From an uncultured delta proteobacterium (GTDB lineage Bacteria; Desulfobacterota; Binatia; UBA9968): a DNA stretch of 64,000 nt. A model generated the notes under the pieces. It saw only the letters and a list, made by a program, of their open reading frames with translations, ran no database searches and was not told the origin of the DNA. Shown here piece after piece: positions 52,861-56,793 of the stretch. Position numbers and translations under genes: made by a program. The stretch spans positions 96,001-160,000 of the forward strand of contig CAWJZV010000025.1 of NCBI GenBank assembly GCA_963847445.1, read 5' to 3'. Within the stretch, counting starts at the first letter, position 1. Every line of letters begins with the position of its first letter.

Positions 52861-52907
52861 TTTTCAGCGACGAGAATGGGTTTGTATTCATTTCGCGACA
52901 GTGCGAA
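52861..52907. promoter_or_regulatory. Tandem UAS pair, 31-bp spacing, before kinase
   Basis: TTTTCAGCGACGAGAA (52861) and TTCGCGACAGTGCGAA (52892). Confidence 0.7.
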
Positions 52908-52916
52908 ATATATCGC

Positions 52917-55327
52917 GTGGCGCAGATCGACTCCCCCAACCACCATCCGACGAAGAGCTTACCTGGCGACTCCGAGGCGCAAAGCTTTGGCAGTCGCGCT
53001 GCTTGTCCTCGTTGCGCTTATGGGAGTCTGGTGGGGCGCTCATGTCCGGTATCGCAACATGCTGCTCACCGAACTTCGCGGCGATGTGTTGGCTGAGCTT
53101 GATCCATACGGCAACGCGCTGACTATCGATCTGCGGCGACGCTTCGATTTGATCTATGGGTTGCGCGGCTGGGTGATAACCAATTCTTCGACGACGGAAC
53201 TCGGCGCCAATTTCGAGACCTTCGCCCGCCAGCTTAGCGAAGGCATCGGCTGGCGTACGCAACTTTAGTCGTCGCGCCGGCGGGGTGGTGCGATTCGTTT
53301 ATCCACGAGCCGGCAACGAGGCGATCCTCGGACGTGATCTTGGTCAACGATCCCCGCGCAGAAGTCCGCGCGGACGCGTCGCGGGCGATGCAATCGGGCA
53401 AGATCGTCATTAGCGGTCCATATGAATTGATAGTCGGCGGCTTTGGCGCAGTAGCGCGATTGGCGATTTTTCGCGAAGAGAAGTTTTGGGGTCATGGTCA
53501 ATGTCACTCTCGACCTGCCGCCGATCTTGGCGGAGGCGGGGATAACTTCTCAAAAAAATTTACAATTGGCGCTGCGCGATGGCCGCGGCCGGGTGTTATT
53601 CGGAGCACCGGCCGTCTTCGATTCTCATCCGGTTATCCATCGCGATCGAATTGCCGGACGGCCACTGGGAACTCGCGGCGATTCCGATTGACGGGTGGAG
53701 CGGCGCCATTCGTCGCGATTTAGCGATATTCGACAGCGGCGCGCTCGCCAGTGCGCTGCTCCTCAGCGCGATCGCCTATTTACTGTCTTTTCGCGATGCG
53801 CGCCTGGCCTTGCGTGTGGCGGAGGGAACCCGCGCGCTTACGAGCTGAGCTCCAGCACCGAACAACCGTTGAAACGGAACTCAGAGCGGCGCGGTCGCGC
53901 TATCAAACTCTCGTCGAGGTCAACCCGGACGCGATGCTGGTTAACTTCAATAAAAAAATTGTCTACGCCAACGACGCGGCGGCCCGTCTGCTCGGCGCGG
54001 CTTCTCCGGAGGATCTACTTGGCCGCTCACCGTTCGAGTTCGTCGAACCGGAACGAAGAGCCGAAGTCGAACAGCGCTACGAGCGGGCAATGGCCTCGGG
54101 CCAGCCCAACCCGCCGAGTATTCAACGCCGGGTCCGTCTCGACGGTTCGTTTGTCTATGCCGAGACCGTCGCCGCGCCGCTGGCGTGGGATGACGGCACA
54201 GCGGTCCAAGTGATCATGCGCGACGTCACCGAACAGCGGCGCGCCGAAGCCTGGGTGCGCAGTCTGATCGATACCACCCAAGACGCGGTGGTGTCCATCG
54301 ATCGGCAGGCGCGAATCGTCCTGTTCAATCCTGCGGCGCAACGAATCTTCGGCTATCGGCCGGAAGAGGTTGTCGGTCAGAAAGTCAACATGCTCATGCC
54401 CGAACCCTACACCTCGGAGCATGATGGCTACATCGAACGGTACGAACGGACCGGCGAAGCTCATGCCATCGGCCGCATCCGCACGGTAACCGCGAAGCGC
54501 AAAAACGGCGAAACCTTTCCGATCGAATTATCGGTGGCGAAGATTACCAGCGACCAGGAAGCTCAATACGGCGCGTTCATCCGCGATATTTCCGATAAGG
54601 TGAGATTGCAACAACAAGCCATCGAAAGCGATCGCTTGGCGACCATCGGCACCATGGCGGCGAAGTTTGGCCATGAGCTCGGTAATCCACTGAACGGGAT
54701 GTCGTTGACCGTTCAGCTTTTGGAGCAACGGCTGAGAAAACAATCGCCGACCCTCGACGAGCAGGCAACTTCAACCCTGGCGCGCTTGAAGACTGAAATA
54801 TCCCGGCTCAACACGCTGCTGCAAGATTTTCGTTCGTTGTCGCGCAAGGAGACCTACAATTTTGAGCCCGCCCAATTGGCCGAACTCGTCGCCGAGGCGA
54901 TCGAGATCGAGTTGCCGGAATATGCCGAACGGGGTGTGAAGGTCGAAGCGCAATTCGCCCCGGACCTGCCGAAAGTACGCGTCGATATCGACAAGATGAA
55001 ACAGGTGATTTTAAACCTGGCCAAGAACGCCGTCGAGGCGATGCCCAACGGCGGCAAACTTTTGTTCACCGGATCGGCCGACAAGGCGGCGGTGATTTTG
55101 GAAGTTACCGACAGCGGTGCGGGTATCCGGCCGAGGTCGATGTCTTCGAGCCGTTCTTTACGACAAAGTCCTTCGGCACCGGTATCGGCATGACCATCGT
55201 CCGGCAAATCCTCGCCGCCCATGGTGGCAGCATCAGTTACAAGAGCGAAGTGGGCAAGGGCACGACATTTACGGTCCGATTGCCGCTGGCCGATGACGGC
55301 AATCCCACAAGCCGCGCTGGCCTGTGA
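52917..55327 (+). CDS. CHASE-PAS-PAS(FixL-type heme)-HisKA sensor kinase (several frameshifts; start approximate)
   Basis: TM, CHASE-like [87 protein letters not shown]. Confidence 0.9.
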
Positions 55328-55377
55328 TTTGCTGAAATCTTTGCTCAAGAAAGGATCGCGCAGGTGAACGCCTATTC

Positions 55378-55422
55378 TTTGCAAATTTGCGAAACATGAC
55401 GGCGATTTTGCACTTGTGCGAA
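55378..55422. promoter_or_regulatory. Tandem UAS-like pair (29-bp spacing) before regulator
   Basis: TTTGCAAATTTGCGAA (55378) and TTTGCACTTGTGCGAA (55407). Confidence 0.65.
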
Positions 55423-55433
55423 AGAGCAATTCG

Positions 55434-56793
55434 ATGAGTTCGAACGGCACCATACTCGTAGTCGAAGATCAGGAGAGCGCCCGTGACAGTCTCGTCGAGC
55501 TGCTTGCGCGGCGAGGGTTACGACGTCCATGAGGCGGCGGATGGCAATGAAGGGATCGCCAAGATAAATCAGCTCGATCTCGATGTCGTGCTGACCGATC
55601 TGATGATGCCGGGAGCGGACGGCCTGGCGGTGCTGAAGCATGTCAGCGAGCTGTCGCCGCAGACTATGGTCGTTCTCATGACCGCCCACGCATCGGTGGA
55701 GACGGCCATCGAGGCGATTCGTGCCGGCGCCCAGGATTACCTGCTCAAGCCGTTGGTTTTCGACGATGTCTTGCGCAAGATTCAAAACCTCATGAGCCAT
55801 CGGCAGCTAGCTTGGGAGAACCAGCTGCTCCGGCGCGAAGTCAGCGGCCATTTCGCGCCGGACCGGCCGCTCGGGCGCAGCCCGGCGATGCAGGAGATCG
55901 TCAAGATGATCATGAAGGTGGCGCCGACGCCGACCACGGTGTTGATCAGCGGCGAGAGCGGCGTCGGCAAGGAAGTCGTCGCCCGCACCATCCACGCCAA
56001 CAGTCCGGCCAAAGACAATGTCTTTCTGCCGGTCAACTGTAGCGCGATCCCGGAGAATTTATTGGAGAGCCAGCTCTTCGGCCACATGAAAGGCTCGTTT
56101 ACCGGCGCGGTCAATTCCCAGGAAGGTTTGTTTCAGCGCGCCCGCGGCGGGACGATTTTTCTCGACGAGATCGGCGAGATGCCGATGAGCTTGCAGCCGA
56201 AACTCTTGCGCGTCCTGGAAGAAAAAACCGTCTTGCCGGTGGGCTCGACCAATCCGGTGAAAGTCAACGTGCGCATCCTGGCCGCGTCCAACCGCGACTT
56301 GAAAGCGGAAGTCGAGGCGGGCCGCTTTCGCGAAGATCTTTACTACCGGCTTTGTGTTTTTGAAATCGACATCCCGCCGCTGCGTAAACGGCTGGAAGAT
56401 CTGCCGGCGCTGGTCGAGCATCTGATTCACCGCCATAACCTGGAGATGAAAACCGCCTACAAAGGCGTCGACAGCGCGACCATGCGCATCCTCATGTCGC
56501 TGCCGTGGAAGGGCAACATCCGCGAGCTCGATAACGTGCTCGAGCGGGCGATGATTCTCGGCAACGGCGAATGGATCGCGCCAGCGGATCTGCCGGGCCA
56601 CAGTTCCGCCGCTGCCGACGGCGACTATCGATTGGAAGATAACCTGACCAAAGCGATCGAACTCTATGAAAAAACCCATATCGAACGAACGCTCGGCAAG
56701 ACCGCCGGCGACAAGATCCGCGCGGCGGAGTTGCTGGGCCTGAGTCTGTCGACGCTCTATCGCAAGATCGAAAAGTTGGAAATCGAAGGGTAA
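55434..56793 (+). CDS. NtrC-family sigma54-dependent response regulator (5' frameshift)
   Basis: TILVVED..TDLMMP REC; GESGVGKE, ESQLFGHMKGSFTGA, FLDEIGE, FREDLYYRL, WKGNIREL; Fis HTH AAELLGLSLSTLYRK. Confidence 0.96.

Follow-up and report, generated by a model that had tools for sequence, protein, structure and literature searches.

A FixL-type PAS kinase gene beside an NtrC-type activator gene in an uncultured Binatia genome: a candidate low-oxygen system with a predicted sigma-54 regulon

Background

The best-understood heme oxygen sensor is the PAS domain of FixL, the kinase of the FixL-FixJ systems of B. japonicum and S. meliloti, whose partner FixJ is a LuxR-type regulator. Here we analyse a locus of the Binatia, a widespread uncultured soil group, in which a FixL-type kinase is instead joined directly to a sigma-54 activator of the NtrC type. 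The locus occupies positions 52,861 to 56,793 of a stretch of 64,000 nucleotides (the window, C25:96001-160000, where C25 denotes a contig) from a genome of 7.19 Mb in 48 contigs (G000), whose nearest relatives appear in public records under the names 'uncultured delta proteobacterium' and 'Candidatus Binatia bacterium'. We consider it probable, with considerable room for doubt, that the two genes form a heme-based low-oxygen two-component system which controls a sigma-54 regulon of the dormancy type and raises the expression of its own regulator through an enhancer lying downstream of the promoter.

Low-oxygen survival programmes are known in Mycobacterium (DosR), Burkholderia and Myxococcus (NmpR), and each is wired differently. 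The DosR regulon of Mycobacterium tuberculosis includes universal stress proteins (Usp), alpha-crystallin/Hsp20, CBS-pair proteins, phosphofructokinase and phosphoribosyltransferase; its sensors DosS and DosT are heme-GAF kinases, and DosR is a regulator of the NarL/LuxR type working on sigma-70 promoters. In Brucella, the membrane kinase NtrY, with a heme-binding PAS which is not known to be of the FixL subtype, signals to the NtrC-family regulator NtrX, for which neither a GAFTGA loop nor activity with sigma-54 is known. In Myxococcus xanthus, the NmpRSTU system comprises a heme-dependent kinase controlling an NtrC-like activator, NmpR, which binds tandem palindromes GCGCA-N5-TGCGC before sigma-54 promoters, and the hypoxia-induced regulon contains CBS-domain and universal stress proteins (PMC11841059). 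Sites located downstream of a sigma-54 start are described as true enhancers for FlrC of Vibrio cholerae in PMC6504787, which cites Correa and Klose 2005.

A FixL-type sensor kinase

The two central genes of the locus, in window positions, are the following.

52963..55327, forward strand: sensor kinase; membrane helix, CHASE, membrane helix, PAS1, putative heme-PAS (PAS2), HisKA and HATPase_c; about six frame breaks
55434..56793, forward strand: NtrC-type response regulator; receiver domain REC (Asp 55597-99), AAA+ (GSFTGA 56092-56109) and Fis-type helix-turn-helix; one frame break near 55503

The kinase starts at a CTG (52963; TTG in relatives) or at a TTG (52987) and ends at the stop codon 55325-27. 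A short cytoplasmic N-terminus is followed by a hydrophobic helix, an extracytoplasmic domain of about 220 residues, a second helix, two PAS domains (PAS1, 53862-54245; PAS2, 54243-54626), HisKA with its His codon at 54672-74, and HATPase_c, the two membrane helices having been read by eye. Pfam searches with the kinase pieces of the window recovered PAS (130 bits), HisKA and HATPase_c. The CHASE domain, proposed as a second input in an earlier reading made from the letters alone (the sequence-only reading), scored 17.5 bits on the broken fragment of the window, below the cut-off of 25, but is recognised at 33.3 bits in the intact ortholog of a related genome, G003; the domain stands between two membrane helices, as in a CHASE receptor. 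Amongst the NCBIfam models the FixL equivalog scored 230 bits (cut-off 850), level with AtoS at 229.6, and the kinase belongs to no named equivalog.

On searching PAS2 against the PDB, the top seven matches were all FixL heme domains (E-values 4e-31 to 1e-27), led by 1d06 from S. meliloti (4.1e-31) and 1dp6 from B. japonicum (2.3e-30), with identity to FixL heme domains of about 50 %. E. coli DosP (EcDos) followed at about 1e-16, and the best other chain stood at 3e-5. PAS2 belongs by sequence to the FixL/DosP heme-PAS group, and the comparison with FixL and EcDos proposed in the sequence-only reading comes out in favour of FixL. The protein string quoted there, for which a proximal His and a distal Arg had been claimed, is found in the frame 53751..55193 with both residues kept, the His at codon 54420-54422 and the distal (FG-loop) Arg at codon 54480-54482. 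In an alignment with B. japonicum FixL (BjFixL) read by eye, PAS2 retains the equivalents of His200, Tyr203, Arg206, Tyr207, His214, Ile216, Arg220 and Leu236. The heme motif recurs in the kinases of eight relatives, amongst which the equivalents of the proximal His, of the propionate partner Arg206 and of the FG-loop Arg220 are invariant. According to a six-frame motif scan PAS2 is the sole FixL-type domain in G000; heme-PAS relatives were not found for PAS1. These features suggest that PAS2 binds heme and that its ligand may be oxygen rather than nitric oxide (NO) or carbon monoxide (CO).

The pocket itself, however, differs from that of FixL in ways that count against oxygen as the signal. 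The Ile215 equivalent is Ala (codon 54465-54467) here and in all eight relatives, the Ile238 equivalent is Val, and at the position of His214 the relatives differ (R, W, Q), so that of the hydrophobic distal triad (I215, L236, I238) only L236 is kept. Given these changes, ligand affinity or selectivity may be different from that of FixL, and it is by inference that the signal of the heme-PAS is taken to be oxygen and not NO, CO or the redox state. PAS2 might instead sense one of these, or act as a heme-less dimerisation module with CHASE as the real input, and the probable cytochrome c'-like lipoprotein gene found before most CHASE-type kinases would suit such a scheme, cytochrome c' being an NO/CO binder. 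We hold this alternative to be unlikely, considering the invariant His and Arg residues and the identity to FixL given above, the low-oxygen type of the target genes, and the fact that the heme-PAS persists, or is even present twice, in relatives that lack CHASE. The orthologous kinases of G018 and G024 (the public loci L021 and L022, respectively) are devoid of CHASE and carry two tandem FixL-type heme-PAS domains. The N-terminal sensor module is thus variable, with CHASE in the G000 clade and none in G018/G024, and since it varies between relatives, the constant core of the family appears to be the heme-PAS kinase and the activator.

The kinase gene of the window is not one open frame. Compared with G003 (88.8 % identity over 3945 columns), its breaks are isolated indels of 1-2 nucleotides near 53247-53280, 53341-53348, 53492, 53643, 53844, 55126 and 55503, the last of them in the regulator. 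These approximately seven breaks are most likely assembly errors, because the G003 ortholog, which is 91 % identical, forms one open frame of 813 codons; the corresponding frames of G022 and G023 have 830 and 823 codons. The extra base at 55502/3 is absent from RNA-library contigs of relatives. A decaying kinase pseudogene in G000, with the regulator served by another kinase, would account for about six breaks within 2.4 kb, five of them in the CHASE region, but is highly improbable in our judgement, since the regulator, the upstream lipoprotein gene and many other genes of the window are broken in the same manner, and since the kinase protein read through its breaks is still 91 % identical to the intact ortholog.

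An NtrC-type partner in conserved gene order

The regulator contains the Pfam domains Response_reg, Sigma54_activat (234 bits), AAA_lid_14 and HTH_8, which agrees with its description in the sequence-only reading as a REC-AAA+-Fis protein with GSFTGA. The nearest NCBIfam model is AtoC at 423 bits (cut-off 714), and no named equivalog is reached. The features of a bacterial enhancer-binding protein are all present, namely a receiver with the phosphorylatable Asp, an AAA+ domain of the GAFTGA type, a Fis-type helix-turn-helix and an rpoN gene in the same genome (C9:43597-44070). A partner of the FixJ type would combine a receiver with a LuxR-type helix-turn-helix; the protein found here is instead REC with Sigma54_activat and HTH_8.

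That an NtrC-type rather than a FixJ-type partner adjoins the FixL-type kinase, as had been claimed, is upheld by the gene order of the relatives. Kinase followed by activator is seen in G003, G014, G023, G018, G024 and G009 (G0xx denotes related genomes and L0xx public loci), and the same order exists in the unpublished region G005, which is excluded from all counts. The kinase core has matches at E <=1e-30 in 22 of 41 related genomes, confined to one genus-level group (21/24 there; 0/16 in two other families of the order). Among 80 public loci retrieved with a profile of the PAS2-kinase region, 14 have the heme motif, and in 8 of these 14 the activator is directly downstream; their labels are Binatia, Deltaproteobacteria, Thermodesulfobacteriota and Acidiferrales. 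In L031 and L039 the activator is present and the strict heme motif was missed. The regulator of G000 is 95-98 % identical to those of G003, G014, G009 and L028, whereas the kinase core reaches just 72-91 %. Searching public genomes for relatives of the regulator returned mostly generic NtrC-family loci at 38-50 % identity, and amongst the 80 NtrC-family loci most like it a FixL-type motif within 3.2 kb was found only at the ortholog itself.

A predicted sigma-54 promoter with a downstream site pair

Sites were scored against the palindrome TTYGCA-N4-TGCRAA, counting mismatches out of 12, and a sigma-54-like promoter was defined by at least 9/12 consensus bases with GG and GC fixed. The palindrome TTTGCANNNNTGCGAAA has 10 matches with up to two mismatches in the window, where 2.5 are expected, and none of 100 shuffles reached 10. 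Around the two genes the following elements were located.

52861..52876, no strand: kinase distal site TTTTCAGCGACGAGAA; 3/12 mismatches, 31 bp from the next site; kept in G000 and G003 only
52892..52907, no strand: kinase proximal site TTCGCGACAGTGCGAA; 1/12 mismatch; kept in 5/5 aligned orthologs
55318..55333, forward strand: predicted sigma-54 promoter TGGCCTGTGATTTGCT; GG and GC at canonical spacing, overlapping the kinase stop codon 55325-27
55378..55393, no strand: site A TTTGCAAATTTGCGAA; 0/12 mismatches; about +35 to +50 of the predicted transcript
55407..55422, no strand: site B TTTGCACTTGTGCGAA; 0/12 mismatches; about +64 to +79, 11 nt before the ATG

Sites A and B are near-perfect 16-bp palindromes, 29 bp apart. 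The promoters are predicted from sequence, and with transcription assumed to begin about 12 nt after the GC, the centres of A and B lie near +42 and +71 and the ATG near +91. The regulator leader has GG and GC 10 bases apart with sites within looping distance, that is, the combination expected of a sigma-54 promoter with an enhancer. The sequence-only reading had placed enhancer pairs before both genes with no -24/-12 element between them and the starts, and both statements need qualification. The pair is confirmed before the regulator, with no mismatch at either site, but before the kinase only the 52892 site is conserved. Similarly, the second statement is literally correct, but a conserved element exists upstream of the regulator pair, at 55318-55333; the pair therefore lies at about +35 to +80, as a downstream element in the leader of what is predicted to be a sigma-54 promoter.

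In the orthologous leaders, a sigma-54-type element is found 116-157 nt before the regulator ATG in 12/12 loci scored, and the two best-scoring sites fall between promoter and ATG in 8 of the 12. In the remaining four (G003, L029, L031 and L039) the distal leader site is equalled or outscored by a match overlapping the promoter or just upstream of it. By eye, promoter, sites and ATG follow one another in the same order in G009 and L036. An alignment of 12 leaders shows no variation in the TGG and TTGC of the promoter or in the core of site B, while the remaining positions drift. The positions of the leader dyads are conserved in sequence without covariation, and an RNA element in the leader was rejected, there being no Rfam match and no consensus fold (-0.23 kcal/mol). 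No terminator-like hairpin was found between the kinase and regulator genes, a sigma-70 and terminator scan of 52300-57200 gave 1 promoter-like site against 1.5 expected, and no site with up to three mismatches occurs across the kinase gene (52908-55377). One RNA-library contig of relatives extends from the gap between A and B to within the regulator gene, which hints only weakly, if at all, at leader transcription; in the public RNA runs the contigs of relatives have only small shares and give no start positions.

Upstream of the kinase the picture is different. The proximal site is non-coding as judged from the aligned sequences, because the reading frame across it differs between relatives, and no -24/-12 element is conserved before the kinase in the aligned orthologs. 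A sigma-54-like match at 52988, behind the kinase pair, lies in codons of the first membrane helix and loses GG or GC in G003, G023 and L028, and a degenerate promoter copy at 52850-52865 (GA for GG) was rejected on the same ground. A kinase gene with a single conserved site and no conserved sigma-54 promoter is a point against the proposed autoregulatory system, as is the loose promoter definition, under which 3336 such sites exist in the genome, and as are the conservation counts, which are non-independent, the relatives being close kin.

The position of the regulator pair poses a question of its own, for sites at +35 to +80 could equally well block transcription, which again tells against an enhancer. 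The pair could be an operator, at which the bound activator blocks elongation or promoter escape and limits its own synthesis, the sigma-54 promoter being fired from solution or from distant sites. NtrC itself acts as an operator-bound repressor at the glnL sigma-70 promoter; here, sites stand between promoter and ATG in 12/12 loci, only one of the 37 in-phase pairs of the genome (described below) has such a layout, and the single conserved kinase site, lacking a sigma-54 promoter, would fit an operator on a sigma-70 promoter. We nevertheless read the pair as activating, and regard an operator as a serious alternative that is the less likely of the two, because sigma-54 promoters depend on an activator and no conserved candidate site other than the leader pair lies close by, because the roughly 54 bp that separate the pair from the -12 element come near the shortest upstream arrangements found in G000 (30-43 bp between site edge and promoter), and because the downstream sites of FlrC (PMC6504787) are a direct precedent for true enhancers in this position.

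Site pairs across the genome

The G000 genome was scanned for pairs with up to three mismatches per site, up to five per pair and one site with up to two. Start-to-start spacings peak at 29-32 bp, with 5, 6, 17 and 9 pairs, in total 37 (the in-phase pairs), other bins holding roughly 2-3; two further bins are raised, at 43 bp (13 pairs) and 54 bp (9 pairs). A sigma-54-like promoter lies 20-220 bp beyond the proximal site, mostly 30-86, in 23 of the 37 in-phase pairs, including the unconserved 52988 match, as against 16/141 pairs of other spacings and 8.9 % of random positions under the same rule. With a position matrix, a promoter accompanies 45/244 hits, compared with 0-12 % for 15 column-permuted matrices. 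The regulator's own pair is the one in-phase pair situated downstream of its promoter.

The predicted targets, with gene assignments from Pfam, begin immediately behind the regulator and continue across the genome.

56879-56894 and 56910-56925, no strand: enhancer pair of the next operon; 31 bp apart; kept in G003, G014 and G023
56983..56998, forward strand: predicted sigma-54 promoter TGGCACACTCTATGCG; kept in G003, G014, G023 and L029
57057..59276, forward strand: target operon; SHOCT membrane protein, CBS-domain proteins, phosphoribosyltransferase; several frame breaks
Window 22836, promoter: two Usp proteins
Window 45650, promoter: rubrerythrin/ferritin-like protein
C4:62084, promoter: tandem Usp
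C4:235894 and C28:104330, promoters: Hsp20
C28:50238, promoter: CBS pair
C28:4567, promoter: CoA-binding and CBS
C28:110584, promoter: DUF2267
C28:40131, promoter: phosphofructokinase
C20:48054 and C28:104489, promoters: pyruvate:ferredoxin oxidoreductase

Out of 27 frames behind promoters found genome-wide, 15 have a Pfam family and 12 have none. About twenty dormancy-type stress operons are probably under the predicted sigma-54 regulon. The term master regulator, used in the sequence-only reading, is appropriate insofar as a sizeable sigma-54 regulon is predicted on the site pair, but exclusiveness cannot be claimed, as the genome encodes two activators that are 60 % identical to the regulator.

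These two belong to a complement of about 26 sigma-54 activators (29 matches), and their recognition helices, SLSSLYRKIE and SRSSLYRKLE, are near-identical to the SLSTLYRKIE of the regulator. One is an orphan receiver-activator (C7:362097-363467) whose ATG lies 54 nt behind a near-consensus sigma-54 promoter, TGGCACGTGGATTGCC (region C7:362058-363467); there is no kinase gene nearby and no site with up to three mismatches within 330 nt upstream. The other, C28:37696-38690, consists of AAA+ with GSFTGA and helix-turn-helix only; it follows a gene read by eye as ferritin-like, and upstream stand a canonical pair, 40035/40066 (no mismatch in 40066), and a promoter at 39982. In the region C28:37696-40131 the site pair is positioned between divergent sigma-54 promoters, one on the activator side and one on the phosphofructokinase side.

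The near-identity of the helices and the location of 12 of the 37 in-phase pairs on C28, beside the domain-less paralog, weaken the case for the regulator as owner of the sites, and the paralogs could, as far as sequence can tell, bind the same ones. The pairs may even belong mainly to the C28 or C7 paralog, the FixL-type system being one input or a mere target, an option for which the canonical pair and promoter of the C28 gene and the sheer number of activators in the genome also speak. It seems to us distinctly unlikely, given that the two best sites of the genome are those in the regulator leader, that these travel with the regulator gene in all orthologs, distant ones included, that the C7 paralog has no such site upstream, and that control of a domain-less activator by this enhancer is what one would expect of a cascade headed by the sensor-linked regulator. 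A cascade, or an enhancer shared between the regulator and its paralogs, would be the simplest reading.

Genes and repeats around the locus

Two further genes lie upstream of the kinase.

51795..52202, reverse strand: stand-alone receiver (REC-only) gene; Response_reg 47 bits, Asp pocket kept; also in G003 and G014
52286..52301, reverse strand: sigma-54-like promoter TGGACCCAATCTTGCT of the REC-only gene; kept in G000, G003 and G014 (3/3 aligned)
52392..52818, forward strand: small lipoprotein of about 136 residues with C-terminal CxxCH; lipobox and CxxCH visible; one frame break

The leader of the REC-only gene holds two weak sites, at 52202 and 52234, and an inverted repeat, GTGGGAA-N19-TTCCCAC; the region before this gene is a weaker candidate for the downstream layout, below the pair cut-off. 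The lipoprotein has its CxxCH at the C-terminus in 4/4 aligned sequences, and its gene precedes the CHASE-type kinases of G000, G003, G014, G023, G009 and L044, the ending in G022 being CxxCP. No copy is present in L028, nor was one detected at eight loci that lack CHASE. The protein gave no Pfam hit at E <=0.01 and no PDB sequence hit at E <=0.1. Its model is a helical bundle of low confidence (predicted local distance difference test, pLDDT, 61), and the best Foldseek match, cytochrome c', is non-significant (E 0.66, template modelling score 0.49-0.60), no match having E <=0.001. Going by this model, the lipoprotein may be a cytochrome c'-like periplasmic partner of the kinase; a predicted CHASE-lipoprotein complex scored 0.00, without controls, and is evidence neither way.

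Some repeats were also noticed. A 9-bp tandem array, GTTCAAATC, with 4.4 copies (56813-56852) lies between the regulator stop codon and the next enhancer pair, and similar arrays occupy the same place in G003, G014 and G023. Two copies of a roughly 0.4-kb element, 3 kb from each other (36964-37433 and 40061-40498), agree almost completely in their translated and site strings; between them lies a region with a sigma-54 promoter at 37886. A dispersed repeat, TTTGCGCCTTTGCGAGA, is present in at least 21 identical copies genome-wide (for example C14:95177 and C24:42046 of G000), and the same element, GCGCCTTTGCG, fills intergenic gaps in relatives.

Proposed mechanism

In the mechanism that we favour, the kinase would integrate a periplasmic signal received by CHASE with a cytoplasmic heme signal and would phosphorylate the adjacent activator, as adjacency, conservation and intact phospho-sites suggest. 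The phosphorylated activator would oligomerise on palindrome pairs about 31 bp, or three helical turns, apart and open sigma-54 promoters, consistent with the statistics of pairs and promoters. Its targets would form a low-oxygen or dormancy-type set made up of Usp, Hsp20, CBS, DUF2267 and rubrerythrin-like proteins, phosphofructokinase and pyruvate:ferredoxin oxidoreductase. Basal expression of the activator would come from read-through from the kinase gene, to which the internal sigma-54 promoter would add positive feedback through the downstream enhancer, a placement that would spare the kinase coding sequence two palindromes. Phosphotransfer, the identity of the site-binding activator and the sign of autoregulation are inferred in this scheme from the sequences.

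A more elaborate circuit with layered gas sensing can also be imagined, in which three features hold jointly: the lipoprotein reports NO, CO or redox state to CHASE while the heme reads cytoplasmic oxygen, the regulator ignites itself from the downstream enhancer, and the C28 paralog provides lock-in. Taken as a whole this is very doubtful. If it were true, a single kinase would weigh the periplasmic gas state against the cytoplasmic one, and a domain-less activator on the same enhancer would lock in the dormancy-type sigma-54 programme after the signal fades.

Comparison with described systems

Beyond the wiring of a low-oxygen programme in this group, the system bears on how a FixL-type domain is coupled to a different transmitter and partner, the natural Ile215-to-Ala pocket bears on ligand choice, and an enhancer at +35 to +80 bears on whether a sigma-54 promoter is activated or limited from there. 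Moreover, with an enhancer readable from sequence, about twenty target operons become predictable without cultivation.

The locus shares with FixL-FixJ the same heme-PAS (1d06/1dp6), the conserved His, Arg206 and Arg220 and a histidine kinase directly after, but differs from it in its NtrC-type sigma-54 partner, in the extra periplasmic CHASE and first PAS, and in Ala at Ile215. The output genes are of the same kind as those of DosS/DosT-DosR, whereas G000 would use a heme-PAS as its sensor and sigma-54 for its output. NtrY-NtrX resembles the locus as a membrane heme-PAS kinase with an NtrC-family regulator; unlike NtrX, the regulator here has GSFTGA, and the PAS is of the FixL type. The precedent of FlrC concerns flagellar genes, whereas here, among the 37 in-phase pairs, the downstream layout was found only at the regulator's own gene.

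Full-text searches of the published literature turned up no article that describes the pairing of a FixL-type heme-PAS kinase with a sigma-54 activator. The proposal of the sequence-only reading that oxygen sensing has been rewired to sigma-54 agrees with the arrangement of a FixL-type kinase beside an NtrC-type activator; output from heme to sigma-54 is already known in another form from NmpRSTU (PMC11841059). Both systems, the present one as predicted, lead from a heme kinase through an NtrC-like activator to palindrome pairs at sigma-54 promoters, with CBS and Usp targets. They differ in that NmpRSTU has a globin-coupled kinase and a multi-step relay, whereas in G000 the activator gene adjoins that of a FixL-type PAS kinase and the only extra component seen is the stand-alone receiver gene; the half-sites are separated by N5 there and by N4 here, and here the autoregulatory pair is downstream of the promoter. 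NmpRSTU of Myxococcus is the nearest published analogue, differing in sensor fold and in relay.

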